Shown: positions 1-42,478, counted from the stretch's first letter. The stretch: 43,765 nt of DNA from a virus (IMGVR_UViG_2917865565_000001:1-43765), one strand, 5' to 3'. Numbers and translations are program-made. The notes: generated from the letters alone by a model not told the origin.

Positions 1-597
1 ATGGGAACTGGGGTACAGGAAAGACTCACTTTATCAGAAAAAAAATTTCCCAAGTACTATGATAAAAACATTTTCTATTATATTTCTTTACTAGGTATTA
101 AATCCTTATCAGATTTCAAAGCTAAAATTATAGATTGTTACTACCTGCAAGATATACAAACATTTAAATCCGGGCTCGAAAGTCTATCAGGAATAGGTAG
201 CATTGCCAGCGGCTCACCTGCAAGTGCCAATATTATTAACAGCATGTTTAATTCTATTGGTGCAAGTGTTAGAGAAAACATTTTATCAAAACTGGATGGT
301 ATTTTTATATTGGATGATATAGAGAGAATATCCGAAACATCATTAGTTAGTGAAATTTTGACATATTGCCATTCTCTTTATATGTCCGAGATGAACTCAA
401 ATTTAGACTTTATTATTATTACCAATACATCAACTGAGTCTGGTTTAAAAATAGAACACAAGGAAAAACTCATTGCAGAAACACTTCATTATAATCCGCA
501 TCCAGAGGAAATATTGGATATAGATATAATAAATGGAAAGCTTTCCCAATTCCCACAGGAAGATAAAATTCTCTTTGAGGATATAGTAAAAAAATAA
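1..597 (+). CDS. C-terminal part of a P-loop/ABC-like NTPase, probably 5'-truncated by the window edge
   Basis: 198-aa ORF in AT-rich DNA; Walker-B-like GIFILDDIE followed about 25 aa later by hydrophobic strand IIITNTS; no Walker A in the window. Confidence 0.35.
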   Translation: MGTGVQERLTLSEKKFPKYYDKNIFYYISLLGIKSLSDFKAKIIDCYYLQDIQTFKSGLESLSGIGSIASGSPASANIINSMFNSIGASVRENILSKLDGIFILDDIERISETSLVSEILTYCHSLYMSEMNSNLDFIIITNTSTESGLKIEHKEKLIAETLHYNPHPEEILDIDIINGKLSQFPQEDKILFEDIVKK

Positions 598-622
598 CAA
601 CATAGTTAACATCCGTATTTTG

Positions 623-1666
623 ATGCGTATTTTGGACACAGCTACGCCATTATATGAATACGTTAAATCATATCCTCATCTTTCTTGGAGAATACCATCA
701 ACAATTCTTTTAAACTCAATATGCTCTTTCTTCATTTTATTATTTTTGCATAATCACTCTCTTGAGGAGCTTCTCAAGGATCAAGATCCAACATTTTTAT
801 TAAACACCGAGGAATCAAGTGATAGTGAGAGAGTGCTATGGTTAGCATTGAATAATTACAAAATAAAACCTGAGATTAAAAGGTATTATAGCGGACAAGC
901 TTCATTAAATGACATATTGGATGTTTTGTTTTATGAAGCAAAACCGCTTACTATGAGAGAAATTGCAATATCAGTACGTCCAGAATTACATGAGATAAAT
1001 GAAAAGGAACTTTCAAATACACTTGTCGACTTAATTTGCCGTAAGATTGATTGTAATTTCTATGAATGGATAAAAGCGTTTCAGAATTATGAGTATTTAA
1101 CCACACATAAATACCTACCAAAATCACCAATTATAACTCTAAAGTTTGTCACTTCGATTCTGAACGGATTCACTGACAATGAAGTTGCAGAATGCTTTGA
1201 GCTATACTCACTTGATAGAAAAAATAGCTTAAATAGTGGTTTTGAAGATAGCAAATTGCTGTACTCAATTTCATTTTACCGTTATAAAAGCACGATCAAA
1301 ATGCGTGAGCTCAACACTATTAGGTTGCAATTAGAATTGAATGGCTGGGCATCATTCAATGCTAACCAATTAACCACTTTAGATCCATTCGGAAATTATA
1401 AGCCGCTTGAAGTGCTTGGTGTATCATTTGTAACAAAATGCGTTTTAAAGAATTGGGCAGTTAATGATATTGAGCAATTTAGTTCTTTCTTGCGTAGCAA
1501 CTATCAAATCAGCAACATAAAACAATTCGCCACTAATGAAAAAAACAAACTTATTTATCTTAGTCAAAAACTTGATATTTTTTGCCTTTCCTATAAAGAA
1601 AGCTTTAAATTTGGAGCCATATACGATCTAAACAGAACAGTTAAAATTGCCATTAACAAATTATGA
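623..1666 (+). CDS. hypothetical protein, AT-rich cargo gene
   Basis: 347-aa ORF from ATG at 623 (track starts at in-frame TTG 620), 23 nt after the upstream ORF; Asn/Lys/Tyr-rich; no motif recognised. Confidence 0.4.
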   Translation: MRILDTATPLYEYVKSYPHLSWRIPSTILLNSICSFFILLFLHNHSLEELLKDQDPTFLLNTEESSDSERVLWLALNNYKIKPEIKRYYSGQASLNDILDVLFYEAKPLTMREIAISVRPELHEINEKELSNTLVDLICRKIDCNFYEWIKAFQNYEYLTTHKYLPKSPIITLKFVTSILNGFTDNEVAECFELYSLDRKNSLNSGFEDSKLLYSISFYRYKSTIKMRELNTIRLQLELNGWASFNANQLTTLDPFGNYKPLEVLGVSFVTKCVLKNWAVNDIEQFSSFLRSNYQISNIKQFATNEKNKLIYLSQKLDIFCLSYKESFKFGAIYDLNRTVKIAINKL

Positions 1667-2148
1667 GAACATCCACTTTACCAAAAAATCATTTTTTTGG
1701 TGGGGTAATACCTGGCGATTAACAAATCTGAAAACAAAGCTCTAATACAGCGGCGAAAGCATGATTTACTTGTGTATATTTAGTTCAAGACGTGCTTCGC
1801 CGTGCATCTCTCACTATTTCCCTCCAGAGCAACATTAAAATACTTCATATAATATAGATATAAGTATCATCTAGCCAAAAACCATTTGAATCCACATGCA
1901 TTCCAGCTTTTATTGATACTCTATCTGATATATCATCCCACCAATTCAGCCATTAATGCTATGACAGGAATTCTAGTTATTCATCATTTTGAGCTGATGA
2001 TGTAATAACGCAACTTATTAATATCTAATGTTTTTTCACTCACCCCTATTACTTCTGTGGCGCTTGCAAAAAAATCATTCAGTCTGAAGCAGGTAATTAA
2101 TCTCGCCACTTACTATCAGTTTCGGGAAAGTACACTAAACATGCTTTT

Positions 2149-2442
2149 TCACCCAAGATTAACTAACCGCCAGACCAGCAGACACGCCACCACCGGCACA
2201 GCAAAATCCATCAGGCTTGCCACATCCCATGCACGTGGATCAAAACCGCCCCACCACGGCATATTCATACGCTTGCCATGCCCGAACATTTCAATCCAGC
2301 GATATTCTGCCTGGGTGTGTTCGCGCGCAATGAAGAACGTACAACCAGCTATCGCCCCGTAAGCCCAGTTTCCGGTAAAAAGGCCAATCAGCACCTGCGC
2401 AGCCACAGCACAAAGCGCATGAAGGAAAGGTGTTATATCCAT
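2149..2442 (-). CDS. small integral membrane protein
   Basis: Internal ATG preceded by AAGGAGG with 4-nt spacer; 97 aa with hydrophobic segments and Gly-rich helix; track ORF starts at upstream GTG 2466. Confidence 0.5.
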   Translation of the reverse strand: MDITPFLHALCAVAAQVLIGLFTGNWAYGAIAGCTFFIAREHTQAEYRWIEMFGHGKRMNMPWWGGFDPRAWDVASLMDFAVPVVACLLVWRLVNLG

Positions 2443-2455
2443 TACTCCTCCTTTA

Positions 2456-3157
2456 TCAGATATCACTTCGGGAAGTTGATAACAACTTTAATTCTGACTC
2501 AAGTTCATCAACTCTTTCAGTCAGTTTCTGGATATGGTGAATCAGTGGAACAACCAGACGTTCGTACATTACACCTTCGGCAACAAGGCCATTGCTGGAA
2601 ATAGCTTCCGGAGCATCATTCTCGTTAGCTGGTCGCCAGTGTACAAACTGAGGGGCAATTTCTCCAACTTCCTCGGCAATCAACCCGTAGAATCCCCAGT
2701 CACGCCTGTCATTTTCGCATTGCGACCTGTACCACACAGGGCGCATCTTGAAAATGAGATCGGCGTGCTCTGAATCTATCGTCTCTACTGAATGTTTATA
2801 GCGGATAGACGATGTTGACCGCAGCACAGACGAAATTGCGGGGTCAGGATTAAGATAAAGGTTTGCCGCCGCTGTAGTCGTGCCCAATCCCCACAAATAA
2901 AACGCTTCACGACCAGTCAGCGGGTAAAAATCTCCACCATAACGACCACTTTCCAGATCGTTCACTTCCACTTTGTTTTTCAGCTTATTATCAACTTCAG
3001 TTTTTGTGTATCTGGAGCTGATATCCTGCTTTGCACTGGTCATCTCAGTCTGAAGCGTTGATACTTTTCCGTTAATTGAGGAAATATCTTCCTTAGCTTT
3101 ACTGACATCTCCCTTTAGCGTGGTAATGTCTCCCGGAATTACTGTCGATGTAGCCAT
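2456..3157 (-). CDS. tail-fibre-associated protein with C-terminal intramolecular chaperone (peptidase S74-like) signature
   Basis: 233 aa; N-terminal coiled region; C-terminal SSIRYKHS, FYGLIAEEV and VMYERLVVPLIHHIQKLTERVDELESEL match the S74 chaperone pattern. Confidence 0.5.
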   Translation of the reverse strand: MATSTVIPGDITTLKGDVSKAKEDISSINGKVSTLQTEMTSAKQDISSRYTKTEVDNKLKNKVEVNDLESGRYGGDFYPLTGREAFYLWGLGTTTAAANLYLNPDPAISSVLRSTSSIRYKHSVETIDSEHADLIFKMRPVWYRSQCENDRRDWGFYGLIAEEVGEIAPQFVHWRPANENDAPEAISSNGLVAEGVMYERLVVPLIHHIQKLTERVDELESELKLLSTSRSDI

Positions 3158-3166
3158 TTTTCTTCC

Positions 3167-3448
3167 TCACATCCAGCCACGAAGTTGATGCTCAACAGCA
3201 ACCACGTATTCATCGAATATTGACGGTGTTTTCACATCATTAATGATGCGCACGTTTACAAAATATCCGTCTTCCTTAACACATACCGGTTCGCCATCTT
3301 CATTCAGTTCTCCGGTTTCTTTGTACACGTTACCTATCACGTCAATAAGAATATCATCCTGCATCGACTCGTCATCATAATAGCCAGTGCTATCCATAAA
3401 GGCCGAAAAGTCGGCCTTGTCTGCAAATTTGAGTGTTAAATCTTTCAT
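3167..3448 (-). CDS. hypothetical protein in tail-fibre module
   Basis: 93-aa ORF, start overlaps stop of upstream ORF (ATGA coupling). Confidence 0.4.
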   Translation of the reverse strand: MKDLTLKFADKADFSAFMDSTGYYDDESMQDDILIDVIGNVYKETGELNEDGEPVCVKEDGYFVNVRIINDVKTPSIFDEYVVAVEHQLRGWM

Positions 3449-4641
3449 TAGATTGACTCCCCCATCTGAGCATCAGTCAATGCCTTGTGCCATATTCTGA
3501 AATTCCTGATATGACCAAATAAATGACGTAATCCGGCTGTAGTCTGGCCTCCAATACGGATAATTGCGGTGCTCTGAATATAGGACCATGTGGTTTTTGT
3601 TTCGCTGGATATACGCCCGTTACTTACTGCGCATGTAGACTGATCAGACTTTACACGCATCCCCATAACCATTTTTTCAAGTGATGCTTTTTCGTTTATC
3701 CGTCTGTTAGACCCACCAATATCGCAATAAGGAAATCCGTCGTAATCTGCTGAAGAACCGAAGCCAAGAATAATAGCCGCTCCGGTTTGATGACCGCCGG
3801 TATCAAAAACACGCGGTGCTGCATTTGGCGTTTTATACCAGTTCTTATGTACCTCACAAAGAACCGTAAAAGGAAGATTATAAAGATTATTCTTAATTGG
3901 GACTGTAACTATATCGCTTGCCCGTGTTACCGGTGCAGCCCCCGTAACAATAAAAGATGATGCGCCTGTACCAGCCTCAATCTGGGGAGTGGTTACATCG
4001 AGACAATCCCCTGATGCCACCATCTGACCTGTATCCGGAGAATACTGGACGAAACCACCAACCGTATTTTCTGTTGTATCTGCTTTTAATGTAGCCTCAA
4101 AAAATATCCAGCCAGTTGCATCATCCTTAACAGACCTTGCTGTAACACGGCTTGTCTGACCCGTCTTGCTAATTATGCGGGTGGTAAGGTTCAGGCTTGC
4201 TGTTCCTATTGATGTCCTTACTTCCCCATCATAATGTTCAAATAAAATACGAACGGCGATATTATCAACTTCACTTTTTACCCGGCAGGATATAGTTACA
4301 TACTTTTCGTCACCTGAAGTATCAACCCCACCGGTACTTGAATACAGCCCTATAATGGTATGCGCTTTACTTGTGCCAACAATCGAATCCTGTACGACAA
4401 ACCGGCCATAATTAAAACCGAAACTATCTGTGCCTGTTTCTGTAACGTCCAGTGAAGTTGACTTATTCCACTTCGAAGGGTCTGTACTGTTCGGGAAGAA
4501 GTTCGTTCTTTGCCCCTCAATAAGCAGGCCATCACGTTCAAACCGTGGCTCGTCAATGGCAGCCTCTGTCAGCACACCAGATTTATTAATGTAAGTTGCT
4601 TTCGATGCGCGTTTAAACTTTACAATCTTGTCGCCAGGCAT
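3448..4641 (-). CDS. side tail fibre, distal portion (non-lambda); probably once continuous with the stf ORF upstream
   Basis: 397-aa ORF; its frame stays open upstream through the T8 run (…KKIVIGDDEITMPGDK…). Confidence 0.5.
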   Translation of the reverse strand: MPGDKIVKFKRASKATYINKSGVLTEAAIDEPRFERDGLLIEGQRTNFFPNSTDPSKWNKSTSLDVTETGTDSFGFNYGRFVVQDSIVGTSKAHTIIGLYSSTGGVDTSGDEKYVTISCRVKSEVDNIAVRILFEHYDGEVRTSIGTASLNLTTRIISKTGQTSRVTARSVKDDATGWIFFEATLKADTTENTVGGFVQYSPDTGQMVASGDCLDVTTPQIEAGTGASSFIVTGAAPVTRASDIVTVPIKNNLYNLPFTVLCEVHKNWYKTPNAAPRVFDTGGHQTGAAIILGFGSSADYDGFPYCDIGGSNRRINEKASLEKMVMGMRVKSDQSTCAVSNGRISSETKTTWSYIQSTAIIRIGGQTTAGLRHLFGHIRNFRIWHKALTDAQMGESI

Positions 4642-4648
4642 TGTTATT

Positions 4649-5833
4649 TCATCGTCGCCAATAACAATTTTTTTTATATGATGGCGAAAAGCCCGTAATC
4701 ATATCCAATGAATCGTTAAACGGTATCCACACATCGGGAAGCGGCTGCAAAACTTGTTTATACGGCTCCGCAGCCTGGCTTGCATACTCTCTGGCTGCGT
4801 CTTCACTTGCTTTTGCAGCCGTCTGGCTTGCAGCGGATGCTTTCGCCGAGTTAGCCGCCGCAGTCTCGCTCGCCTTTGCGTTGGTTTCACTGGTTTTTGC
4901 AGCTTTTTGACTGTTGGCAGATGCAGTGGCAGAAGTAGCCGCCGCACTTGCAGAACCGGCTGCGGCACTTTCGCTTTGGGCCGCTGCATCCTGACTGTTT
5001 TTCGCCGCAGTTTCGCTGGCTTTGGCATTCGTTTCGCTTATTTTCGCTGCCGTCTGGCTGGACTTTGCGTTAGTTTCACTCGTCTTCGCAGCTTTCTGGC
5101 TGTTAGCCGCAGCAGTTGCTGATCCAGCTGCTGAAGTCGCAGAACCGGCTGCAGCACTCTCGCTTTCGGCTGCTGCATCCTGACTGCTTTTCGCCGCAGT
5201 TTCACTGGCTTTGGCATTCGTTTCGCTTATTTTCGCTGCCGTCTGGCTGGACTTTGCGTTAGTTTCGCTCGTCTTTGCGGCTGTCTCACTGTTTTTCGCG
5301 TTGGTTTCTGATTTTTTGGCAGCTGTCGCGGAGTTTGCCGATGCAGTCTGCGAGGACGCTGCCGCCTGTGCGCTGTTAGCTGCATTCGTTTCTGAGGTTT
5401 TCGCCGCGTTCTTCGATGATGCCGCTGCAGTTTCGGATTTCTTTGCCGCCGCTGCGCTCTGAGAGGCGGCTTCGGCGTTGCGTGCCGCTTCTTCCACCAT
5501 TGCCTCAAAACGACGCAATGCCTCCGGCATGACATCATCTTCCGTCATGGCACCGAGAAAATCATTCAGCGTACCTGGTCTGGAACCTTCATAGACGGTA
5601 ATGGTCCCGGCATGTGAAGGCGGAAAACCTTCAACCAGCAGGGTGACGCTGTACTGACCATACTCAACATCCATGCTGTAACGCCCGGCTTCATCCGGAT
5701 TTTCAGAGGCCACCGTGTTCACCAGTACCGTGGTGCTGTTACGCTTTGCCTTCAGTTGAATAGTGCAGTTCTGTATTGGTTTTCCCGCACCATCTTTCAG
5801 CACACCTGAGATTTTTACTGCTGCCATATCCAC
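4649..5833 (-). CDS. stf: side tail fibre Stf, N-terminal portion
   Basis: N-terminus MAVKISGVLKDG… and VEYGQYSV…GFPPSHAGTITVYE match lambda Stf; followed by Ala/Ser/Thr-rich repeats; ends in out-of-frame tail after homopolymer. Confidence 0.7.
   Translation of the reverse strand: MDMAAVKISGVLKDGAGKPIQNCTIQLKAKRNSTTVLVNTVASENPDEAGRYSMDVEYGQYSVTLLVEGFPPSHAGTITVYEGSRPGTLNDFLGAMTEDDVMPEALRRFEAMVEEAARNAEAASQSAAAAKKSETAAASSKNAAKTSETNAANSAQAAASSQTASANSATAAKKSETNAKNSETAAKTSETNAKSSQTAAKISETNAKASETAAKSSQDAAAESESAAAGSATSAAGSATAAANSQKAAKTSETNAKSSQTAAKISETNAKASETAAKNSQDAAAQSESAAAGSASAAATSATASANSQKAAKTSETNAKASETAAANSAKASAASQTAAKASEDAAREYASQAAEPYKQVLQPLPDVWIPFNDSLDMITGFSPSYKKNCYWRR
4940..5320. repeat. tandem duplication of about 189 bp inside stf (two 63-aa A/S/T-rich copies)
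   Basis: Near-identical DNA blocks about 190 nt apart (gcatcctgactg…ttcgcagc); protein repeat KTSETNAKSSQTAAKISETNAKASETAAK… twice. Confidence 0.6.
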
Positions 5834-5891
5834 TCCACAAAAAAGCCCGCCTGAACCGGCGGGCTGTCATAACACTGTGTTACCTGGCTAA

Positions 5892-6491
5892 TCAGAATTT
5901 ATAACCGACACCCACGATAAAACCGTCAGTGCGCCAGTCGCCACTGCCGGAGCCTTCATAAGCAAGGTCAATGGCCACGGATTCGGTCGGGTTAAACTGC
6001 ACGCCAGCCCCCCACGCCAGAGACGTGTTGCTGTGGCGACCGTCATCACTTCCGGTCAGCACATCGTGCGTTTTCCCCTTGTTATCAGTTACGCGGAGAT
6101 AATCCCCGGAGAAAGTCGACACACGGCTGTAAGCCACACCCGCCATCGCATAAGCACTGAACCATTCATTCACGCGCACAGATGGCCCCGCCATCATGCT
6201 GAACCAGCGGTTACGCACTGAATCTTCATGCCAGCGGGTATCGCTGTAACGGGTAAGCTGGCGATTCTTGTCTCCTGCATAGCTGAATGACGTCACCAGC
6301 CCCAGCGTGTCCGTAAATTCATAACGGTATTTCACGTTAATGCCCTTCAGGTCATCGTTGCCGGGCATATCTGTATGGGACTGAAGATACCCGGCGCTTA
6401 GTGTGGACTGATGCTCTGCTGCACTCGCTGGCGTACCAGCGGCGACCAGCCAGACTACTGCAGACAGAATAACAGCACATAATTTACGCAT
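5892..6491 (-). CDS. lom: outer-membrane protein Lom (Ail/Lom family)
   Basis: 199 aa with signal peptide, beta-barrel-like sequence ending GYKF, position after J as in lambda. Confidence 0.85.
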
Positions 6492-6558
6492 AATTACCTC
6501 TCGCTTTTCTGCAATAAAAAAGGCGCCATTTCTGGCGCCCGTATTTGGGTTATAAAAT

Positions 6559-9500
6559 TCAACTGATACTGATACCGGCTGTTGATTTCTTCATCACGAC
6601 AACAAGAAGGTCGCTGATACTGGTCGTTGGCGTCCAGTTATTAGCACCATATGAAGAAACATTGAAAGTCAGGGTGACATGACCGTGTCCGGCAGGCATA
6701 TCAATGACGGATGAAAATACCCTGCTGACATCCGTCGCGGGTTGCTGAAAGATTTCCTGTCCGTTCTTCAGCACCTGCAGCTTACAGGTTGAATACCAGT
6801 ATGACTGTTGGTTGTTGCTGTTGAAGTTTTCATGCTTACCACCGCGAAACAGAACAGGTGGGATTACTATCTGACGGTCAAAAGCCTGATCATCGTACAC
6901 AGTGACCGTTATTGTACCGCTGGCATAACTGCCATTTCTCGGAAAGGCTTTTCCCACCGTTTTGACAATATCACCTTCAATCTGGTTGGCAGACAGTTTT
7001 CCCAGAATCAGACAGTTCTGGTTAATCGTGACATTATTGAGCGTCCCGGAGTTCGCATTCACGTTACCGCTGATATCGGCATTTTTCGCCGTCAGCCGCC
7101 CGTCCGGTGTCAGGGAAAATACCGGAGGATTGCCGCCGCTGGTAATGGTGGGAGCCGTCAGATACTTCAGGAACACTTCGTTCATGAATATCTGGTTGCC
7201 CTGCGCCACAAACATCGGCGTTTCATTCCCGTTTGCCGGGTCAATAAACGCGATACGGTTAGCGGCAACCAGGAACTGGCTCAGTTTGCCTTCCTCCGTA
7301 TCCTCCATGCTGAGGCCAAGCCCCGCGACATAATGCCTGCCGTCTTCGGTCTGCTCAATTTTGACGCCCCACATGGCATTCCATTTATCGTTGGCGTCTT
7401 TCCACTCTTTCGAAAACTCCTCCAGTTTGCTGGCGTTATCCTCCGTCAGCTCGACTTTTTCCAGCAGCTCCTTGCCGAGATGGGATTCGGTTATCTGGCC
7501 TTTGAAAAAATCCAGGTAACCTTCCGCATCATCGCTCGCCCGACCGACAGCCTCCACGAATGTCGATTTGCCGACGGTGTTCACACTGCGAACGTAAAAA
7601 TAATAATCATGGCCCGGTTTGATATTGATACTGGCGGCTATCCAGTACAGCGCCGTGCCAAGATAGCGGGCTGTGGTTTCAACCTGCCTGATATCCGCAA
7701 TCCGCTTTTCCGAGAACCAGAACTCAAACTGTACCGTCGGATCATAAACGGCAAGATGCGGCGTGGCGGTTATCTGAAAATAGCCCGGCGTCAGCTCAAT
7801 CCGCGACGGCGCTGCCGGTGCGGCAATCCGGAACGATACCGATGCCGGATCGCCCTGCTGCCCCCAGGCATTTGCCGCCCGGACTGTCAGCCTGTAGTTT
7901 CCCAGCGCCAGTTGCGTGAAGCGGTATGTGGTTTCCGTCGTCCGGGCCGTGCTGACCAGCCGCTCACTGCCGTCATCCGCTGCCACGGTCAGGCGAAGCA
8001 TAAAGCTCACACCCTTCACCACCTTCGGCGTATCCCAGCGCGCCAGCACCTGGTATTCCCCGCTGTCTGCGGTGACTTCTGCGGTCAGGTGCTGCACCGC
8101 TGGCGGCGTGACACCATTCACCGTGCCGCTCTGGTCGCCGTCAAAGTGCGCCCCGTTATCCACGATGGCCTCTTTCTCCGGCACATGCTGCACAGCGGTG
8201 ATGGCATACGTGCCGTCGTCATTCTCACGGATACTCACACAACGGAACAGGCGCTGGCGCAGCGTCGGCAGCTTCAGCCCCCACACGCTGTACTCGGCAA
8301 CGCCGTCAGGAACCCGGCTCACTTTCACCTTCACGCCGTCGGTGACGGACTGGACCTCCACGCTGACCGGATTCCCCTGCCCGTCAACCAGGCTTATCAG
8401 CGTGGTGCCGGAGGATGGCAGCGTGATTTCTCGGTCGAGCGTCAGCGTCCGGGTCTGGCTGTTCACCGCCAGCACACGCCCGCCGATGCTGATCCCCGCA
8501 TAGTCATCATCACAGATTTCAATGACATCACCCGGTACATGGCGAAGCCTTCTGCGCCCACGCTGAAGTCCACGGTCTGCGTTTCCAGCAGCTCCGTTTT
8601 AATCAGCCACAGCCCGGCGCGGTGTGCCTGCCCCCGGCTGGTACAGCCAAAGGCATCCATCTTCGTGACGTTGCGACCGTAACGGAGAATGGCCTGCGTA
8701 TCTTCAACAAGCTCTGTCGCCGTCTCCCAGCCGTTATTCGGGTCAATCCAGTTCACCTCAATGGCATTATGGCGGTCCTTCAGGGCGCTGAAGCTGTAGC
8801 GGAACGGCGCGCCATCATCCGGCATCACCACATTACTGCGGTTATAGGTCCACACCTTATCCGACGGTCGGTCCTGCACGAACGTCAGCGTCTGCCCGTT
8901 CCATACCGGCATACAGCGCATCGCCGAGCAGAAATCACTGAGAACATCCCACGCCTTACGCTGTGTGGTCAGGTAGGCATTACAGGTGATGCGCGGCTCC
9001 GTGCCGCCAAAACCGTCCGGCACCGACTGGTCGCAATACTGGCCGATGACATACAGCGCCCATTTATCCACATCTGCCGCACCAAGACGTTTACCCATGC
9101 CGTAGCGCGGGTGGGTCAGCATATCCCACAGACACCAGGCCATGTTGTTGCTGTATGCTGGCTTAAACGTTCCGTCCCAGATACCGCTGTATTGCCGCGT
9201 CTGCGGGTTATAGTTCGACGGCACCTGCAGAATGCGCCCGCGAAGATGATAATTACGGCTCACCTGCTGGCTGCCGAACTGTTCCGAGTCCACCTGCACG
9301 CCGACCAGTGCCGTGTTCGGGTAGCACAGTTTCACATCGATGATTTCGGTGTATGACGACCAGAGCGTTTTGTTCTGCAGCTGGTCTGTGGTGCTGTCCG
9401 GCGTCATCCTGCGCATCCGGATATTAAACGGGCGCGGCGGCAGGTTACCCACCACCACCGAGGCCAGATACTGCGAGGTAGTTTTGCCCTTAATGGTGAT

Positions 9501-9956
9501 GTCTTTTTCCGTCACCCAGCCACCGTTACGCTGTATCTGAACCAGCAGGCGGACTTCCGACGGATTCCGGTCTCCCTTTGAGGTGGTTTCCACCAGTGCC
9601 TGCACACCGAAGGTAAAGCGCAGACGGTCGATGTTTGCCGACGTGATGGTCCGGGTGATCGGCGTGTCATATTTTACTTCCGTACCCAGCACCGTCTCGG
9701 ATCCGGAGGATTCAAAACCCTCCGGCGGTGTCTGCTCCTGCTCACCTGCCCGGAACACCACCGTGACACCGGCGATGTTGGTATTCCCTTCACTGTCCAG
9801 CACCGGCGTACTGTTCAGCAGCACGCTTTTTAATCCATCCACCGGACCTTCTATCGGCCCTTCGCTGATGGCATCGATCACACTCAGTAACTGCGTGGAT
9901 TTCAGGTTGTCCTTCGCTTCGCGCGGGGTATGCCCCTTACTGCTGCCTTTACCCAT
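6559..9956 (-). pseudogene. J: tail tip / host-specificity protein J, reading frame interrupted
   Basis: Two ORFs (8463..9956 and 6559..8475) in different frames together cover lambda J; first ends in junk tail [23 protein letters not shown], second frame reads [29 protein letters not shown]. Confidence 0.8.
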
Positions 9957-10016
9957 TCGTCATGCTCCATAAACGACAAAACCGCCCGGAGGCGGTTTCA
10001 CATAAAACATTTTGCA

Positions 10017-10664
10017 TCAGCGACCAATCACCACAACCTGACCACCGTCCCCTTCGTCTGCCGTGCTGATCTCCTGAGAAACCACCCGCGACCCCACACG
10101 CATTTCACCGTACAGAACAGGCAAAACATTGCCCTGAGCAACCATGTTATCCAGTGAGGAGAAATAGGTGTTCTGTTTGCCGTTATCTGTACTGGCTGCC
10201 GTGGGCGTCCTGGCTTTCGGTGCCAGCATCTGCGCCACACCTCCCAGGATCATACTGGCCCCTGCCGCATACATGCCCGATACAGCCGCGGCACCCAGCC
10301 AGCCCACAGGGTTCCACCATGCCACCGCAATCAGCGCCGCCCCCAGCACTGCCTGAAAAACACCGCCACTTTTGGCACCAGCCAGACGCGGTACGATGTG
10401 GATCACGGCACCATTTGCCAGCGGCTCATTAAGACGGGCAGATAATTCATTTTCGCCTGCATCACGCCCGGCAATGCGCACCTGATACCAGCCCTCATTC
10501 AGTTTCTGACGAAACGCCGGGAGCTGTGTGGCCAGCGCCCGGATGGCTTCGGCCCCCGTTTTCACACGAAGGTCGATGCGACGGCCAAATCGTTGCAAAT
10601 CCCCGTAAAGGCAGATGCGTGCCATGCCCGGTGACGCCAGAGGGAGTGTGTGCGTCGCTGCCAT
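10017..10664 (-). CDS. I: tail assembly protein I
   Basis: Matches lambda gpI as recalled; overlaps 3' end of K as in lambda. Confidence 0.85.
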   Translation of the reverse strand: MAATHTLPLASPGMARICLYGDLQRFGRRIDLRVKTGAEAIRALATQLPAFRQKLNEGWYQVRIAGRDAGENELSARLNEPLANGAVIHIVPRLAGAKSGGVFQAVLGAALIAVAWWNPVGWLGAAAVSGMYAAGASMILGGVAQMLAPKARTPTAASTDNGKQNTYFSSLDNMVAQGNVLPVLYGEMRVGSRVVSQEISTADEGDGGQVVVIGR

Positions 10665-11305
10665 CTATCGGTATACCTCTCTCGTTTGCTCAGTTGTTCA
10701 GGAATATGGTGCAGCAGTTCGCCGTCGCCGCAGTAAATGGCGGCATGATTCGGCACCGATGAACCAAAACAGCACAGCAGCACATCGCCCGGCTGCGCCG
10801 CTGACAACGGCACCTGATACAGCCCCGTTGCCTCCAGATTATCCAGATAGAGATTCTGGCCGTTACGCCACCAGTCATCCTCGCGATGAAAATCCGGCAT
10901 CTCTATCCCCGCCAGATGGTAAGCATCCCGGAACAGCGTGTAACAGTCCGTCACCCCGTGCTCAAAGCGCCGCCCGGTAAGATGCGGCACACAGCGGAAC
11001 TTATGAATCGCCCCCCGGCAGACCAGCCACCACGGCAAATCACTCTGCACCTGCAGCCGCCGGTCAGCCTCACTCAGCCAGGGCAGACCTCCGGGATGAC
11101 TGTGGACCAGCGCCACAATCTCACCCTGCATTTCTGCCTGCAGCCAGTCCTCCGGCGACATCCGGAAATACTCCTCCGGCTCACCGGAGATATTCACGCA
11201 GGGAAAATATCTTTCCCCCTCCGGCGTTCTCACCACGAAGCCGCACGACTCCGCTGGCGCACATCGCCGGGCGTGCGCCAGAATCGCTGATTCTGTCTCT
11301 GTCAT
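10562..11305 (-). CDS. K: tail tip assembly protein K (JAMM/MPN plus NlpC/P60-like)
   Basis: Matches lambda gpK; HSHPGG motif; internal Met49 would give the classical 199-aa product. Confidence 0.85.
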   Translation of the reverse strand: MTETESAILAHARRCAPAESCGFVVRTPEGERYFPCVNISGEPEEYFRMSPEDWLQAEMQGEIVALVHSHPGGLPWLSEADRRLQVQSDLPWWLVCRGAIHKFRCVPHLTGRRFEHGVTDCYTLFRDAYHLAGIEMPDFHREDDWWRNGQNLYLDNLEATGLYQVPLSAAQPGDVLLCCFGSSVPNHAAIYCGDGELLHHIPEQLSKRERYTDRWQRRTHSLWRHRAWHASAFTGICNDLAVASTFV

Positions 11306-11310
11306 GGGAT

Positions 11311-12009
11311 TTACTGCGAAAGTTTGTTAATGGAAAGGAAGCCGCCAAAGTTGCCGACGTTATTGCGAAACTTGCAGCCACTCAGGCATTTGCTGCATTT
11401 ATCCTTCGTGATATCGGACGTCGGCTGGTCATATTCATCCGCGACCGCCGGACCGCTATAACCGCACTCATCACCGCGATAGGTCCAGGTGCAGGTGTTG
11501 GCCAGCATGATACGTCCCGGAAAAACAGCGCCGTCCGTTTCCGTCGGCGTGGACAGTACAAAGGAGGCACTCACCGCGCTCAGTTCGCTGCACTGCTCAA
11601 TGCGCCAGCGGCTGATCACCTCCTGCTCCGGATCGGCGTCGCTGTTTCCGTTGACGAAGTTCACCGCATCCAGAAAACGGGCATAAACCTTACGCCTGAC
11701 CACCGTTCCGCAGACCAGACTCTGCAGTTCTTCCGCCATCCCGGTGACCATGCCGTGCAGGTTAGAGACCGTCAGTGTCGGACGGGCAGCACTGCCCTTG
11801 CCGTTCAGTTCAAATCCCGTCCCCTGAATGGGGTATGCCTGATACTGCCGCCCCTGCCAGGTGACCGGCTCACCTTTTTCGTTCTGCTCATTACAGAAAA
11901 AATAACGTTCACCACCGACCTCTGTCAGATCGATTTCCCAGAGCACCACGCTGGCAGACTGCTCCGCACGGGTGCATTCATTCAGTGTTTCCTGTCGGAT
12001 ATCCTGCAT
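11311..12009 (-). CDS. L: tail tip protein L
   Basis: 232 aa, matches lambda gpL. Confidence 0.9.
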   Translation of the reverse strand: MQDIRQETLNECTRAEQSASVVLWEIDLTEVGGERYFFCNEQNEKGEPVTWQGRQYQAYPIQGTGFELNGKGSAARPTLTVSNLHGMVTGMAEELQSLVCGTVVRRKVYARFLDAVNFVNGNSDADPEQEVISRWRIEQCSELSAVSASFVLSTPTETDGAVFPGRIMLANTCTWTYRGDECGYSGPAVADEYDQPTSDITKDKCSKCLSGCKFRNNVGNFGGFLSINKLSQ

Positions 12010-12338
12010 CAGTTCACCACCTGTTCAAACTCTGCGCTGAACTCAACACGCAACATACTGACCCGCGACGACCATTTTGCGCAGGTCACCTTTATCTGCC
12101 GGTAGCCATAAGGCGGCGTCCACAGAAAGGCCTTCCAGCCCCCGTGCTCAGCCAGAAACGACTCCAGCGCCGCGGCCTCCCAACGGGGAACAGAAAGCGT
12201 CACGCTGTACGTTTTCAGGTCGACATTCAGCCCGGCAGGCGCTCGCTGGGAATAGCCATCACCAAAGCGCACCTTCCTGACGGAAGGGGCCGAAGCCACA
12301 TCCATACCGGGTTTCACTTTCCAGCGGAAGGTTTTCAT
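12009..12338 (-). CDS. M: tail tip protein M
   Basis: 109 aa, matches lambda gpM. Confidence 0.9.
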   Translation of the reverse strand: MKTFRWKVKPGMDVASAPSVRKVRFGDGYSQRAPAGLNVDLKTYSVTLSVPRWEAAALESFLAEHGGWKAFLWTPPYGYRQIKVTCAKWSSRVSMLRVEFSAEFEQVVN

Positions 12339-14914
12339 CGTCCACCTCCGGAGAACAGGCCACCATCACGCATCTGTGTCTGAATTTCATCACGGGCACC
12401 CTTGCGGGCCATGTCATACACCGCCTTCAGAGCAGCCGGACCTATCTGACCGTTCGTGCCGTCGTTATTAATCACCACATGGTTATTCTGCTCAAACTTC
12501 CCGGACGCCTGCGACCGGCTGTCCGCCAGGCTGCCCGGTGTACCGACATAACCACCGGTGGCATAGCCGCGCATCAGCCGGTAGAGATTCCCCACGCCAA
12601 TCCGGCTGGTTGCCTCCTTCGTGAAGACAAATTCACCACGGTGAACAATCCCCGCTGGCTCATATTTGCCGCCGGTTCCCGTAAATCCTCCGGTCGCAAA
12701 ATGGAATTTCGCCGCAGCTGCCTGAATGGCTGTACCACCTGACGCTGATGCGCCACTACTGGCAGCACCGCCAATGGCGCTGCCGATACTCCCGACAATC
12801 CCCACCATTGCCTGCTTAAGCAGAATTTCTGTCATCATGGACAGCACGGAACGGGTGAAGCTGCGCCAGTTCTGTTCACTGCCGGTCAGCATCGCCGCCA
12901 TATTCTGTGCAATACCATCAAAGGTCTGCGTGGCTGCACTTTTAACCTGCGACATACTGTCCGTGGCGCTCTCTTCCCACTCACTCCAGCCTGACCTGAG
13001 GCCTGCCATCCAGCTCCCGCGAAGCTGGTCTTCAGCCGCCCAGGTCTTTTTCTGCTCTGACATGACGCTATTCAGCGCCAGCGGATTATCGCCATACTGT
13101 TCCTTCAGGCGCTGTTCCGTGGCGTCCCGCGCTGCCTGCCGGTCAGTCAGCCCCCGGTTTTTCGCCTCAATGGCTGCCCGTTTTGCCCGTTGCTGCTGTG
13201 CGAATTTATCCGCCTGCTGCGCCAGCGCGTTCAGGCGCTCCTGATACGTGACCTTGTCACCAAGTGCAGCCAGCTGGCGTTTGTACTCCAGCGTCTCATC
13301 TTTATGCGCCAGCAGGGATTTCTCCTGTGCGGACAGCTGGCGACGTTGTGCCGCCTCCTCCAGTACCGCGAACTGACTTTCTGCCTTCCACATATCCCGG
13401 CGCTGCTGGCTGATTTTCTCATTCGCTCCGGCATGCTTCTCCAGTGTCCGGAGTTCTGCCTGAAGCGTCAGCAGGGCAGCATGAGCACTGTCTTCCTGAC
13501 GATCGCCCGCAGACACTTTCACGCCGGACTGCTTCGGCTTTTTCAGCGTCGCTTCATAGTCCTTTTTCGCCGCCGCCATCAGCGTGTTGTAATCTGCCTG
13601 CAGGATTTTTCCGTCTTTCAGTGCCTTATTCAGTTCCTCCTGGCGGGCGGTATATTTCTCCAGCGGTGTCTGCAGGCGTTCGTAAGCCTTCTGCGCCTCT
13701 TCGGTATATTTCAGCCGTGATGCCTCAGACTCGGCCCGATCTTTTGCTGCCATCTCACTGGCCTTTTCAAGATCTGCCTGCAACGTGGCGGCTGAAAGCC
13801 CAAGTCGCGCATTCTCTCTCTTCTCCCATGCCCCCCGAAGATTGGCAAGAAATGCTGACGTTTTACCGCGCCGGTGGCTCCGGCTCTGATACCACTGCCA
13901 TTTTTTATCCGCTTCATCAAAAGCTTTTTCAGCTTTGGCGAGCATATCAGCAGAGGAGTCCGGGCGGCCAATATCCAGCACCGCATCCCACATGGATTTG
14001 AATGCCTGTGCAGTCCTGTCTGCCCAGGTCTCCAGCGTACCCATGTTATCTTTCAGTTTACGGGTCTGGTCATCAAACCCTTTCGTTGCGGCCTCGTTCG
14101 CCGCCTGCAATGCCCCGGCTTCATCGCCGGAACGCTGCAACTGAGCAACATATGCAATCTGCTCCGCCGTCACGTTATGGAACTGGCGCGCCATCGCCGT
14201 CAGCCCCGACGTCGGGTCAGTGGTCAGCTTCCCGAAGGCTTCAGCGACCTTGTCCACCTCCACGCCGGATGCAGAGGAGAAACGCGCCACACTCTGGCTG
14301 ATGGACGCAATCTGAGCCTCGCCGCTTACCCCCGCCTTAACCAGTGCGCTGAGTGACTCGCTTGTCTGGTTAAACGTCAGCCCTGCGGCCTGCCCGGCTC
14401 TGGACAGGACCAGCATACGATCTGCCGTCAGTCCCGCCTGATTACCGGAAAGGACCAGCGTTTTATTGAAATCGGACAGGGTTGAGTCACCCTGATACCA
14501 GGCATACGCCAGCGCACCGGTCGCCACCGCCAGCGAAGTGATACCAACCATCGGCAGGGTGATCGCACCGGCAAGCCCCCTGAACATGGGGATCATCCCG
14601 CCGAAGGAGTCCTTCACCTGACCACCCTGTTGCAGCAGGATCAGCCACGGATTCTGCCCCCCTGCAAGCTGTGTGGCCACGTCGGTGAACTGCGCAGGCA
14701 GCATACGCATGGCGGCTTTATACTGCCCGACGGAAATCCCCGCTTTCTGTGCAGCCAGCGCCTGCCGGTTCATTGACTGTTCAACGACTGCCGCTGTTTT
14801 TTTCGCATCAGTTTCCGTACCGGAAAAATGACGCCTGACTCTGGCCATCTGCTCGTCAAATCTGGCCGCATCCAGACTTAAATCAACGACCAGATCGCCT
14901 ACCGGTTCAGCCAT
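12335..14914 (-). CDS. H: tail tape-measure protein H
   Basis: 859 aa, matches lambda gpH. Confidence 0.9.
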   Translation of the reverse strand: MAEPVGDLVVDLSLDAARFDEQMARVRRHFSGTETDAKKTAAVVEQSMNRQALAAQKAGISVGQYKAAMRMLPAQFTDVATQLAGGQNPWLILLQQGGQVKDSFGGMIPMFRGLAGAITLPMVGITSLAVATGALAYAWYQGDSTLSDFNKTLVLSGNQAGLTADRMLVLSRAGQAAGLTFNQTSESLSALVKAGVSGEAQIASISQSVARFSSASGVEVDKVAEAFGKLTTDPTSGLTAMARQFHNVTAEQIAYVAQLQRSGDEAGALQAANEAATKGFDDQTRKLKDNMGTLETWADRTAQAFKSMWDAVLDIGRPDSSADMLAKAEKAFDEADKKWQWYQSRSHRRGKTSAFLANLRGAWEKRENARLGLSAATLQADLEKASEMAAKDRAESEASRLKYTEEAQKAYERLQTPLEKYTARQEELNKALKDGKILQADYNTLMAAAKKDYEATLKKPKQSGVKVSAGDRQEDSAHAALLTLQAELRTLEKHAGANEKISQQRRDMWKAESQFAVLEEAAQRRQLSAQEKSLLAHKDETLEYKRQLAALGDKVTYQERLNALAQQADKFAQQQRAKRAAIEAKNRGLTDRQAARDATEQRLKEQYGDNPLALNSVMSEQKKTWAAEDQLRGSWMAGLRSGWSEWEESATDSMSQVKSAATQTFDGIAQNMAAMLTGSEQNWRSFTRSVLSMMTEILLKQAMVGIVGSIGSAIGGAASSGASASGGTAIQAAAAKFHFATGGFTGTGGKYEPAGIVHRGEFVFTKEATSRIGVGNLYRLMRGYATGGYVGTPGSLADSRSQASGKFEQNNHVVINNDGTNGQIGPAALKAVYDMARKGARDEIQTQMRDGGLFSGGGR

Positions 14915-15341
14915 ACCGGACTCCTCCTGCGATCCCTTCTGATACTGTCATCAGCATTACGTCATCCTCCGTCATGTCCGCCACATCCGGGGAGGCGGGG
15001 ATAACTTCATTCCCGTCCGGACCAAAACGAACACCTCCGGCAAGCCCTGCCGCTTTCTGCATCAGCACATCACCTTCAGGCTCTTCGTCAGCCTCACACC
15101 GGTTCAGCAGACTGAAATCCAGCGGATGCATATCCGGATCGCTGAAAAACAGGCTGAGCACGGTGTACGTCAGCCCGGAAAAGTGCATATCCAGCAGAAC
15201 ATCATGAAAATAATGGGTACTGTAAAAGCGGTGCCAGTCGGCATACTCCGTGGATGACATCCCGGCAAGCATGGCGCGCCAGTCGGGTCGCCCCATCTCA
15301 CGCGCCAGTTTCAGGGCAAAACTCAGCTCACCGTCGAACAC
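14907..15341 (-). CDS. T: tail assembly chaperone T portion, expressed as G-T fusion by -1 frameshift
   Basis: ORF opens at GTG directly after the slippery heptamer; sequence matches lambda T. Confidence 0.8.
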   Translation of the reverse strand: MFDGELSFALKLAREMGRPDWRAMLAGMSSTEYADWHRFYSTHYFHDVLLDMHFSGLTYTVLSLFFSDPDMHPLDFSLLNRCEADEEPEGDVLMQKAAGLAGGVRFGPDGNEVIPASPDVADMTEDDVMLMTVSEGIAGGVRYG

Positions 15342-15736
15342 TTTCCCGCAGAAACAGGCTCTGCAGGCCCGGCGTCATCTGCCTGTTCAGGGGCATTATT
15401 CACCACAAACTCATACATACCGGACAGCCGGTACACCACGTTTTCAGCATGAGAAATTGCCTCTGTGGGCCAGGTGGTAAGCACTTCCTGCTCAATCTGT
15501 TTAACGGCTTCATTCATGGACGGCATCTGCGTCTTCTTCGGATGGTTATGCCACAGAGACATCGCCACCACAAAAGCGCCGGTTCTGATGACGTCTTCCA
15601 CAGTAAACTTCCGGTTGCTGTCGGATTCTGCCTGCTGTTTCATCAGGGCGAGATGCTCAATACGCTGCAGGGCTGACAGTTCAGAAAGCGTGACGGTCAC
15701 GCCGTTATATTCAAATGATTCGGTTTTCAGGAACAT
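15323..15736 (-). CDS. G: tail assembly chaperone G
   Basis: 137 aa, matches lambda gpG. Confidence 0.85.
   Translation of the reverse strand: MFLKTESFEYNGVTVTLSELSALQRIEHLALMKQQAESDSNRKFTVEDVIRTGAFVVAMSLWHNHPKKTQMPSMNEAVKQIEQEVLTTWPTEAISHAENVVYRLSGMYEFVVNNAPEQADDAGPAEPVSAGKCSTVS
15341..15347 (-). other. programmed -1 ribosomal frameshift slippery site G GGA AAG (G to G-T)
   Basis: Plus-strand ctttccc, i.e. GGGAAAG on minus strand, at the G/T overlap. Confidence 0.75.
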
Positions 15737-15751
15737 CGCTGACTCTCCGGA

Positions 15752-16492
15752 TTAACTGGCGGTGACGGTGATTTCTGCAACAGCAGCAAGTTCACCATTA
15801 CCGGATACGACCGGAATGTTGACCTTGCCTGCAGCAACGCCGTTCACGGTGATGGTCATACCACTGACCGACACGGTGGCTTTTGTTTTATCCGAAGACA
15901 CCGCACGGAAGCTCTTGTCGGTTACGCCTTCCGGCTGGAATGCCACGGTCAGCGTGGTGCTCTGCCCTTTCACTACAGAAGCACTGGCTGGCGTTACCGT
16001 CATGCCGGTTGCCGCCGTCACCGTACTGCGATCTTCAGCCATCGACGGGCGTCCCACATTGGTGACCTTCACCGTGCGGGTGATCACTTCCTTCGCCGTC
16101 ACCGCCTTACCGATACTGCTGACCCAGCCACGGAACACATCGACCGTGCCGTTCGGGAAGCGGATTTTATAGGCACGGGTATCACCTTCATTAAACCACG
16201 CCAGCAGCGCCTGCTGCCCCTGCTCTCCGGGCATCCACGCCAGCGTGAAGCTGGTATCTCCGGCAGATTTCTGCCCCTGCCCGGTCGCAGTCCAGTCTGC
16301 ATCTTCATCATCGAGATAGCTGTCGTCATAGGACTCAGCGGTCAGTTCGCCGGGCGTCAGGTCTTTAACTTTTGCCAGACGCGACCAGTCAACGTCTGAA
16401 AGCGGGTTCGCATAAGGGTCACCGTTCCCCTTATAAACCCACAGTGTGGTCCCGGCACCTTTTACCGGCATTGTTGGATTTGGTACAGGCAT
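15752..16492 (-). CDS. V: major tail protein V
   Basis: Internal start [12 protein letters not shown] gives 246 aa as in lambda. Confidence 0.9.

Positions 16493-21009: not shown

Positions 21010-21029
<20 letters not shown>
19710..21029 (-). CDS. C: capsid assembly protease C (scaffold Nu3 nested in frame at 3' end)
   Basis: GTG start giving (M)TAELRNLPHIASMAFNEP and 439 aa; overlaps end of B. Confidence 0.85.
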
Positions 21030-24711
<3,682 letters not shown>

Positions 24712-24737
<26 letters not shown>

Positions 24738-25257
24738 TCAGCAACCCCGGTATCAGTTCATCCAGCGCGGCTGCTTTGTTCATGGCTTTGATGATATCCC
24801 GTTTCAGGAAATCAACATGTCGGTTTTCCAGTTCCGGAAAACGCCGCTGCACCGACAGGGGGATCCCGTCGAGAATACTGGCAATTTCACCTGCGATCCG
24901 CGACAACACGAAAGTACAGAATGCGGTTTCCACCACTTCAGCGGAGTCTCTGGCATTCTTCAGTTCCTGTGCGTCGGCCTGCGCACGCGTAAGTCGATGG
25001 CGTTCGTACTCAATAGTCCCTGGCTGGAGATCTGCCTCGCTGGACTGCCGCAGTTCTTCAACCTCCCGGCGCAGCTTTTCGTTCTCAATTTCAGCATCCC
25101 TTTCGGCATACCATTTTATAACGGCGGCAGAGTCATAAAGCACCTCATTACCCTTGCCACCGCCTCGCAGAACGGGCATTCCCTGTTCCTGCCAGTTCTG
25201 AATGGTACGGATACTCGCACCGAAAATGTCAGCCAGCTGCTTTTTGTTGACTTCCAT
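24712..25257 (-). CDS. nu1: terminase small subunit Nu1
   Basis: 181 aa, MEVNKKQLADIFGASIRTIQNWQEQGMP… matches lambda Nu1. Confidence 0.9.
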
Positions 25258-25480
25258 TGTTCATTCCACGGCCAAAAACAGAGAAAGGAAACGACAAAGG
25301 CCCAAAAGTTCGTTTTCAGCACCTGTCGTTTCCTTTCTTTTCAGGGGGTATTTTAAATAAAAACATTAAGTTACGACGAAGAAGAACGGAAACGCCTTAA
25401 ACCGGAAAATTTTCATAAATAGCGAAAACCCGCGAGGTCGCCGCCCCGTAACCTGTCGGATCGCCGGAAAGGACCCGCAA
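25258..25480. other. cos site (cosB, cosN, cosQ)
   Basis: Plus 25435..25446 aggtcgccgccc is the complement of the lambda 12-nt cohesive end GGGCGGCGACCT; GAAAGGAAACGACA-type repeats toward Nu1. Confidence 0.7.
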
Positions 25481-25645
25481 AATGATAATAATTATCATCT
25501 ACATGTCACAACGTGCATCTACGCCATCAAACCACGTCAAATAATCAATTATGACGCAGGTATCGTATTAATTGATCTGCATCAACTTAACGTAAAAACA
25601 ACTTCAGACAATACAAATCAGCGACACTGAATACGGGGCAACCTC

Positions 25646-25840
25646 ATGTCAACTAAGAACAGAACCCGCAGAACAACAACCCGCAACATCCGCTTTCCTA
25701 ACCAAATGATTGAACAAATTAACATCGCTCTTGAGCAAAAAGGGTCTGGGAATTTCTCAGCCTGGGTCATTGAAGCCTGCCGTCGGAGACTAACGTCAGA
25801 AAAGAGAGCATATACATCAATCCAAAGTGATGATGAATAA
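25646..25840 (+). CDS. small conserved prophage protein (DUF3950/YlcI-like)
   Basis: 64-aa ORF between cos and bor, same position as the equivalent lambda ORF. Confidence 0.5.
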   Translation: MSTKNRTRRTTTRNIRFPNQMIEQINIALEQKGSGNFSAWVIEACRRRLTSEKRAYTSIQSDDE

Positions 25841-26199
25841 ACATCCCGGTTTCTTCCACCATCGCACCGGAAAAGCGACTATGAGGGTAACCCTGCGTCT
25901 GTCAGCACAGTAAAACCCGGTGTGCATCGTTTTTGATTATTCCCGCACACTCACGCAGAAGGAATTCCCCGTCGGGCTACGGTCATGGTTAATGCGGGAA
26001 TACGGCGACGATACAGCGCAGCTAAAAGGGTAATGGACAGAAAGAGCGGTTTATTTCATTCCACAGGATTCTGAGTGCCCCCCTCCTCCAATAGGCTGAG
26101 CATCCACCTATATAGTTTTAATTTTCATCAATCCATTTAACTATCGTTTAATTGTTGTCACATAGGATTCTGCCGTTTTTAACAATGCAGGATAATAAG

Positions 26200-26493
26200 A
26201 TGAAAAAAATGTTGTTTTCTGCCGCTCTGGCAATGCTTATTACAGGATGTGCTCAACAGACGTTTACTGTTGGAAACAAACCGACAGCAGTAACACCAAA
26301 GGAAACCATCACCCATCACTTCTTCGTTTCGGGAATTGGACAGGAGAAAACTGTTGATGCAGCCAAAATTTGTGGCGGCGCAGAAAATGTTGTTAAAACA
26401 GAAACCCAGCAAACATTCGTAAATGGATTGCTCGGTTTTATTACTTTAGGCATTTATACTCCGCTGGAAGCGCGTGTGTATTGCTCACAATAA
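26200..26493 (+). CDS. bor: Bor lipoprotein (serum resistance)
   Basis: 97 aa from MKKML…ITGCAQQTF lipobox; matches lambda Bor. Confidence 0.85.
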   Translation: MKKMLFSAALAMLITGCAQQTFTVGNKPTAVTPKETITHHFFVSGIGQEKTVDAAKICGGAENVVKTETQQTFVNGLLGFITLGIYTPLEARVYCSQ

Positions 26494-26524
26494 TTGCATG
26501 AGTTGCCCATCGATATGGGCAGCT

Positions 26525-26986
26525 CTATCTGCACTGCTCATTAATATACTTCTGGGTTCCTTCCAGTTGTTTTTGCATAGTGATCAGCCTCTCTCTGAGG
26601 GTGAAATAATCCCGTTCAGCGGTGTCTGCCAGTCGGGGGGAGGCTGCATTATCCACGCCGGAGGCGGTGGTGGCTTCACGCACTGACTGACAGACTGCTT
26701 TGATGTGCAACCGACGACGACCAGCGGCAACATCATCACGCAGAGCATCATTTTCAGCTTTCGCATTAGCTAACTCCTTCGTGTATTTTTCATCCAGTGC
26801 AGCAACATCACGCTGGCGCATCTGCATGTCAGTAATTGCCGCGTTCGCCAGCTTCAGTTCTCTGGCATTTTTGTCGCGCTGGGCTTTGTAGGTAATGGCG
26901 TTATCACGGTAATGATTAACAGCCCATGACAGGCAGACGATGATGCAGATAACCAGAGCGGAGATAATCGCGGTTACTCTGTTCAT
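26525..26986 (-). CDS. Rz: spanin inner-membrane subunit Rz
   Basis: Matches lambda Rz from (M)[16 protein letters not shown]. Confidence 0.85.
26584..26766 (-). CDS. Rz1: spanin outer-membrane lipoprotein Rz1 (embedded in Rz, +1 frame)
   Basis: 60 aa, lipobox VVGCTS and PPPPP tract, matches lambda Rz1. Confidence 0.8.
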
Positions 26987-27480: not shown

Positions 27481-27695
27481 TATTCACCTCTCGCAGCCTT
27501 TCGTCTGTCTTCTCTGATTTTGAAATACAGATTTGTCAGATAAGTGAGAAAACCCAACACAAGGCTTCCAAGCACTCCAATCGCTGCCCACTGTGACGGA
27601 CTGACCTGATCCAACCACTGCAAAAACCAGTATCCTGCACTACCAGCAGATGTTCCGTAGGCAATGCCAGTTGAGATTTTGTCCATTGATTTCAT
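27480..27695 (-). CDS. S: pinholin S (dual-start), phage-21 type
   Basis: 71 aa with Met1/Met4 dual start MKSMDK, two TM segments; matches S21. Confidence 0.85.
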
Positions 27696-27813
27696 AGCAA
27701 CGCCTCCGCCAGTAACGGATTGCGTAGTTCTTATATTGGGAAGGGGAAAAAAGAAGGCCGCAGCGTAACTATCACTGATGAATTCAGGATAGCCAGTGGC
27801 TACGGCTCAGTTA

Positions 27814-36595: not shown

Positions 36596-36623
36596 GCCCT
36601 ACAATGTGAGGGCAGTTTTTTTT
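36596..36623 (+). terminator. rho-independent terminator (tL-type) downstream of ral
   Basis: GCCCT-ACAATGTG-AGGGC hairpin followed by T8. Confidence 0.6.
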
Positions 36624-36928
36624 GACGGAGTAAGCGATGATAAAAAACTGATTACCCTGCAGAACTTAAACAAAAAGTAATAACAGCAATTAAATGCTCT
36701 TTTATCTCATGTCGTACAGATGAAGAACGATATGTCGTTGAGTGTGCAATTGTCGAGTTTCTCACAGCGATGGAATTTACCGCCGCAGAATCAATAGACG
36801 TATTAAAGCAATCAGACGGAAATGATATTGAAACAGATGATGTTATTGACCGACTAATAAAATCATTCGAAGAAGAAATAGAGTAACTGCCAAGCGCAGC
36901 TTTAACACCTGCCAATGACGGAGGAATT

Positions 36929-42354: not shown

Positions 42355-42478
42355 AAACAAGCCTTTATAACTTAAAGGCATAAAAAAAATCGCTCATAGA
42401 CCAAAAGGAATCTACGTCAAATATTACTATATTTCAATGTGTTATAATGATCCCGTCCATAAAATGGGGAGACAAAAA

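Follow-up and report, generated by a model that had tools for sequence, protein, structure and literature searches.

The apparent split of the side tail fibre (stf) gene in this prophage is almost certainly not a real biological feature and would instead have arisen as an artefact of assembly, the prophage itself being an ordinary one of the lambda type. In the 43,765-nt stretch of viral DNA analysed here (IMGVR_UViG_2917865565_000001, referred to as the window), two open reading frames (ORFs) that would make up a single tail fibre are parted at a run of eight T residues. Sequence comparisons indicate with high confidence that this T8 is a homopolymer-length miscall, that the real run would be seven bases long, and that the real gene would encode a single 792-aa side tail fibre. 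Since a second assembly of the same strain, Escherichia sp. E2562, carries the gene intact and differs from the window only at homopolymer runs, the split is best explained as a sequencing artefact. The attribution of the error comes from comparing these assemblies: the extra base would have arisen during Ion Torrent base-calling or in the assembly consensus, and no frameshift, split gene, or recoding would exist in the organism.

A T8 run parts the stf gene into two apparent ORFs

Deleting one A from the A8 run on the coding strand yields ...SPSYKKIVIGDDEITMPGDK... and joins both ORFs into a single 792-aa product, as anticipated in the initial annotation, which had described the T8/A8 run as the boundary between the two ORFs (Table 1). 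Counted from the ATG used by the homologues, the upstream ORF consists of a tail-attachment domain, a repetitive shaft rich in Ala, Ser, and Thr, and a six-residue out-of-frame tail (NCYWRR), and its stop codon lies only 7 nt ahead of the downstream ATG. That ATG corresponds to a Met codon lying inside the intact gene, the Met being kept within the ...DDEITMPGDK... segment of intact homologues, and inspection by eye found no Shine-Dalgarno sequence ahead of it. Separate translation of the 397-aa ORF was considered and dropped, given its conserved internal Met, the missing Shine-Dalgarno sequence, and a frameshift that appears artefactual. An 8-base A/T run is by itself unremarkable in the window, where four occur compared with 3.4 ± 2.8 expected from shuffled sequences.

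Table 1. Positions of the features discussed in the text, counted from the first base of the window.
Feature	Position	Strand	Remarks
Proposed real gene, stf-like side tail fibre	3448..5827	-	792 aa without the spurious base
Apparent N-terminal ORF	4649-5833	-	394 aa from GTG; ends in ...SPSYKKNCYWRR and a stop (also given as ...GFSPSYKKNCYWRR and a stop)
N-terminal ORF, start used by homologues	4649..5827	-	392 aa from ATG at 5827
Apparent C-terminal ORF	3448-4641	-	397 aa; starts MPGDKIVKFK
T8 homopolymer (T7 in VATM01)	4668..4675	+	A8 on the coding (-) strand; splits stf; true length most likely 7
Direct repeat in stf shaft	4856-5104 and 5045-5293	-	Offset 189 bp; 85% identity
KAP-family P-loop NTPase gene	1-1666	+	Between the tail fibre genes and host thrS
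A8 (A7 in VATM01)	38..45	+	Within the KAP NTPase gene
A7 (A6 in VATM01)	588..594	+	Splits the 580-aa KAP NTPase gene; both Logan assemblies also shorter
A7 (A6 in VATM01)	2068..2074	+	Intergenic
Genes downstream of stf	2149-3448	-	93, 233, and ~97 aa
Tail tip gene J	6559-9956	-
CC (CCC in VATM01)	8548..8549	+	Splits J (1132 aa) into 638- and 497-aa ORFs
Portal gene	21010-22612	-	533 aa in relatives
A7 (A6 in 10/10 related prophages)	22355..22361	+	Splits the portal gene into 111- and 515-aa ORFs; call based on relatives only, the site lying outside the stretches compared with VATM01
T8 (T7 in VATM01)	36616..36623	+	Just upstream of a small early gene
A6 (A5 in VATM01)	36642..36647	+	Start of the small early gene behind 36616..36623
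A8 (A7 in VATM01)	42382..42389	+	Intergenic

The repaired gene is predicted to encode a lambda-type side tail fibre

The N-terminal ORF carries a PF08400 (phage_tail_N) domain at residues 3-132 (E 2.7e-67) and shares 58% identity over 341 aa with lambda orf-401 (E 5e-78). In the C-terminal ORF, an NF048003 GTA_spike_fiber domain occupies residues 40-241 (E 1.8e-19) and the C-terminus gives a weak Laminin_G_3 match; this half showed no similarity to orf-401, the lambda sequence with which it was compared. The gene comes after J and lom in the order H-M-L-K-I-J-lom-stf, which is seen in the second E2562 assembly and in relatives, and the structural genes of the window are 95-96% identical to those of lambda-like phages. 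Because of the PF08400 domain, the identity to orf-401, the distal-domain matches, and the gene position, we identify the gene from its sequence as encoding a side tail fibre of the lambda type whose distal module is not that of lambda; its assignment to the lambda type, already made in the initial annotation, is thereby borne out.

Going by its homology with lambda Stf, the fibre would be anchored to the tail by the PF08400 domain and would have the repetitive segment rich in Ala, Ser, and Thr as its shaft, while family matches and published work on lambda suggest that the distal GTA-spike-fibre/LamG-like module presumably binds a surface receptor. The shaft contains a direct repeat (Table 1) that encodes reiterated KTSETNAK-type segments rich in Ala, Ser, and Thr, and shaft length differs widely among relatives, at about 200-480 codons upstream of the junction.

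The phrog_1419 profile aligns with residues 2-792 of the repaired protein on profile positions 1-793 of 793 (1436 bits), and the repaired translation is exactly that of WP_138158678.1/TLI79765.1 from Escherichia sp. E2562. A collection of 15 billion proteins contains the repaired 792-aa protein but no exact copy of the 392-, 394-, or 397-aa fragment. At 90% identity, WP_138158678.1 falls into a cluster of 104 proteins, and a length of 792 aa is seen in 11 of the 15 members listed. E. coli prophage tail fibres of this family are common, and the gene is an ordinary one among them.

Relatives read through the junction in one frame

Complete E. coli genomes and phage IdasGreatGrand contain the closest genes, which are single ORFs (792 and 731 aa) and align to the window with exactly one gap; this gap falls exactly inside the T8/A8 run. 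The comparison with intact homologues, which had been proposed as a check on the initial annotation, agrees with its reading of one gene split by a one-base homopolymer change. The gene for WP_016230681.1 is ~96% identical to the window stf at the DNA level, and a megablast search of INPHARED phages and complete E. coli genomes with the locus returned relatives of at most 96% identity, all with a single intact gene.

The junction was also surveyed with a pattern scan of viral, genome, and metagenome collections, which allowed 1-5 variable bases after TATAAAAA and was designed to catch A6, A8, and A9 alleles. The 144 loci from the scan and three fetched earlier gave 147 loci with the same flanks, 76 of which read TATAAAAAAATTG (A7) and 71 of which read TATAAAAAGATTG (A5GA). 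An out-of-frame run was found at the junction in none of the 147 relatives, and A6, A8, and A9 alleles were not found in the viral, genome, and metagenome collections. The frame is continuous through the KK-IVIGDDEIT junction in all 147 relatives and in the second E2562 assembly; the window has one extra base. Most relatives having both sides on the contig keep the frame open for ~400 codons each way. Related phages with two genes meeting at an 8-nt run, the arrangement that had been named as speaking against the initial annotation, were sought and found in 0 of 147 cases.

These data bear on whether two genes could be the natural state, with a shaft and a distal fibre resembling T4 gp36/gp37 and with the fused versions as the exception. 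The junction does lie at a module boundary, in that the downstream part stays at ~396-418 codons among relatives while the upstream part changes in length (~200-480 codons). However, nearly all relatives with both sides on the contig read through in one frame, the annotated homologues are single genes of 731-792 aa, the internal ATG is without a Shine-Dalgarno sequence, and the upstream ORF ends in six out-of-frame residues. A two-gene organization is therefore extremely unlikely and, judging from these single-gene, read-through homologues, appears already refuted.

Runs of A or T about this long permit some RNA polymerase slippage in E. coli. The length of the A8 run is thus compatible with a functional slippery site that gives both truncated and full-length protein through transcriptional slippage or +1 ribosomal frameshifting, or with a phase-variation switch, and the short distance of 7 nt between the upstream stop and the downstream ATG would also fit such a role. 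Conservation of the site is lacking, however: out-of-frame runs occur in none of the 147 relatives, nearly half of the relatives carry AAAAAG, with its synonymous interruption, and the VATM01 assembly of the same strain has A7, all of which leave a slippery site with only the slimmest chance. Since the G/A difference within the run is synonymous (AAG and AAA both encode Lys), the run does not appear to be under selection. Programmed -1 frameshifting was rejected because restoring the frame needs +1 or -2 and because the run is not conserved.

Two assemblies of strain E2562 differ only in homopolymer length

The window is 100.000% identical, with no gaps, to PDIJ01000010.1 (GCA_004745205.1) over positions 1-13157, 21879-43255, and 24912-43765. 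This contig is part of an Ion Torrent draft of Escherichia sp. (cryptic clade II) strain E2562, for which single-end reads of 35-400 nt at 50x, deposited under SRX3260343, were assembled with MIRA and SPAdes under the accession PDIJ00000000 (PMC6639607 Table 1). In a second assembly, VATM01 (GCA_005781075.1), the proteins are named as those of Escherichia sp. E2562 and stf lies on contig VATM01000015.1; a literature search for its sequencing platform found no paper describing the VATM01 assembly.

Across the two window stretches compared with VATM01 (1-15826 and 34239-43765, 25,353 bases in total), there were 0 substitutions and eight one-base differences, all of them in homopolymers (Table 1). 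Five of these were the one-base gaps that, with 0 mismatches, separated window positions 1-15826 from VATM01000015.1. Seven of the eight differences are A/T runs that are one base longer in the window, and the remaining one is a C run that is one base shorter. VATM01 has 7-mers at all four of the window's 8-mers, and in the 15.8-kb overlap 2 of 5 A/T 7-mers and 2 of 14 A/T 6-mers differ, with no difference in any shorter A/T run.

At the stf site, VATM01 has seven bases and an uninterrupted frame, which leaves the 792-aa gene whole; the SRR8835204 Logan assembly likewise reads A7 in an uninterrupted frame. The genes for the KAP NTPase (580 aa), J (1132 aa), and stf (792 aa) are all intact in VATM01; the PDIJ01 record holds no J or stf protein and has the KAP NTPase gene in three pieces. 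The Logan assemblies of SRR8835204 and SRR6148323 match VATM01 at every site covered.

The SRR6148323 Logan assembly shows shorter run lengths at its three covered sites. Judged by its run number, SRR6148323 may stem from the 2017 Ion Torrent project that includes PDIJ01, and if it is the E2562 run, the extra bases came from the published consensus and not from most of the reads.

Run-length discrepancies extend to other genes and to host DNA

The J discrepancy is the sole case in a G/C run and the sole deletion, and sequence comparison indicates that the J split is another artefact. For the portal gene, the ten related prophages used as the reference were a non-specific lambdoid set taken from a large-terminase look-up. 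In the early region, the small gene near 36616-36647 encodes 68 aa in PDIJ01 compared with 82 aa in VATM01. The host DNA beside the prophage is also affected, with two run-length differences (T8/T7 and T7/T6) in a 7.5-kb flank; both fall in the rplT-pheS intergenic region, at 17296 and 17383 of the host-side sequence, outside the window. A 44-aa gene between rplT and pheS is present in VATM01 and not on record in PDIJ01. Since the same kind of difference occurs in host DNA, the run-length problem is assembly-wide and not specific to the prophage.

There are thus at least nine discrepancies in the window and two in the adjacent host DNA, or ~1 per 3 kb, and they are blind to function in that essential genes, accessory genes, intergenic DNA, and host DNA are all affected. 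If this rate were real, it would amount to well over a thousand frameshifts per genome. A five-part signature, namely differences that are indel-only, dependent on run length, A/T-biased, function-blind, and spaced at ~1 per 3 kb, would be that of flow-chemistry miscalling and not of mutation. Ion Torrent accuracy drops with homopolymer length, and errors are most frequent in the A and T flows (PMC3623719). While Bragg et al. found that long homopolymers were mostly under-called in raw PGM reads (PMC3623719), seven of the eight differences here are over-calls, contrary to that trend. The excess base may have come from a later base-caller, from 400-bp chemistry, or from the MIRA/SPAdes consensus.

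In lambda PaPa, stf is divided into orf-401 and orf-314 by a real frameshift, with loss of the side fibres (PMC12617516), and homonucleotide runs in lambda stf readily acquire frameshifts in the laboratory, some conditions selecting for them (PMC2762979). A real inactivating mutation was accordingly a reasonable hypothesis. Under this hypothesis, A7 slipped to A8 in the E2562 culture sequenced by Ion Torrent, which would part the tail-attachment domain and shaft from the receptor-binding portion and abolish side fibres as in PaPa. Frameshifts were found in 15 of 19 mutated lambda stf genes, nearly all of them in short runs (PMC2762979), and, in further support, A7 runs are prone to mutation and lambda can form plaques without Stf. 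However, the stf change is one of at least nine discrepancies in the window and two in host DNA that are accompanied by zero substitutions, the essential J and portal genes are also affected, errors of precisely this kind are known from the platform, and the second E2562 assembly has A7. A PaPa-type frameshift was absent from the independent sequences, with both VATM01, from strain E2562, and the SRR8835204 Logan assembly reading A7. We therefore consider an inactivating mutation very unlikely. Of the two alternatives put forward in the initial annotation, a homopolymer sequencing error is upheld by the T7 in VATM01, the indel-only differences, and the Ion Torrent origin of the contig, whereas a real inactivating frameshift is not.

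The two assemblies may come from different E2562 cultures, and a real A7-to-A8 change at the stf site keeps a residual probability of a few per cent. The A7 tract might also be pictured as a contingency locus that was OFF (A8) in the Ion Torrent culture and ON (A7) in the other, which would make this a phase-variable lambdoid side fibre, but this is most improbable, and all the other discrepancies between the assemblies argue against it and for simple error.

Neighbouring genes and implications for the window

The start of the window truncates the KAP NTPase gene, which is further disrupted by two homopolymer miscalls. Through its match to the PADLOC candidate defence family PDC-S49 (E 5e-16), it may represent a prophage-borne defence moron. 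Downstream of stf, the arrangement of three genes is kept in relatives. The 233-aa protein among them carries a Peptidase_S74 (endosialidase chaperone) domain and resembles the C-termini of very long tail fibre PHROGs (phrog_3299, 3e-140), features that point to an additional short fibre or to a tip detached from its fibre; together with its two small neighbours, it may serve as a second fibre or in assembly.

Unless confirmed, an apparent frameshift, split, or pseudogene at any A/T run of at least six bases in the window is to be regarded as an artefact, a caution that covers the J, portal, KAP NTPase, and stf genes. The window supports no conclusion on side-fibre loss, prophage decay, or recoding.

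Comparison with known systems

The window stf resembles lambda Stf (Ur-lambda stf; orf-401/orf-314 in PaPa) in its place after J and lom and in its homologous PF08400 N-terminus and Ala/Ser-rich shaft. The two differ in their distal halves and in what follows them: a T4 gp37-like OmpC-binding tip and a downstream gene for the Tfa assembly chaperone (tfa) were not found at the window stf, whose distal half is instead GTA-spike-fibre/LamG-like and which is followed by genes of 93, 233 (Peptidase_S74), and 97 aa. The analogy with PaPa drawn in the initial annotation holds formally, since in both cases a one-base change leaves two ORFs of ~400 aa, but it does so on the page only. Because the C-terminal half appears unrelated to lambda Stf, this site and the one in PaPa are not homologous, and what is a true phage mutation in PaPa would be an assembly artefact here.

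The discrepancies also resemble the flow-chemistry artefacts of Ion Torrent draft bacterial genomes, with which they share their indel-only, run-length-dependent, A/T-biased, and function-blind character and a documented platform, although they are mostly over-calls where long runs in early PGM raw reads were mostly under-called. Compared with the 792-aa proteins of phrog_1419 that are annotated as prophage tail fiber N-terminal domain-containing (WP_138158678.1 and WP_016230681.1), the stf of the window would differ only by its spurious base.
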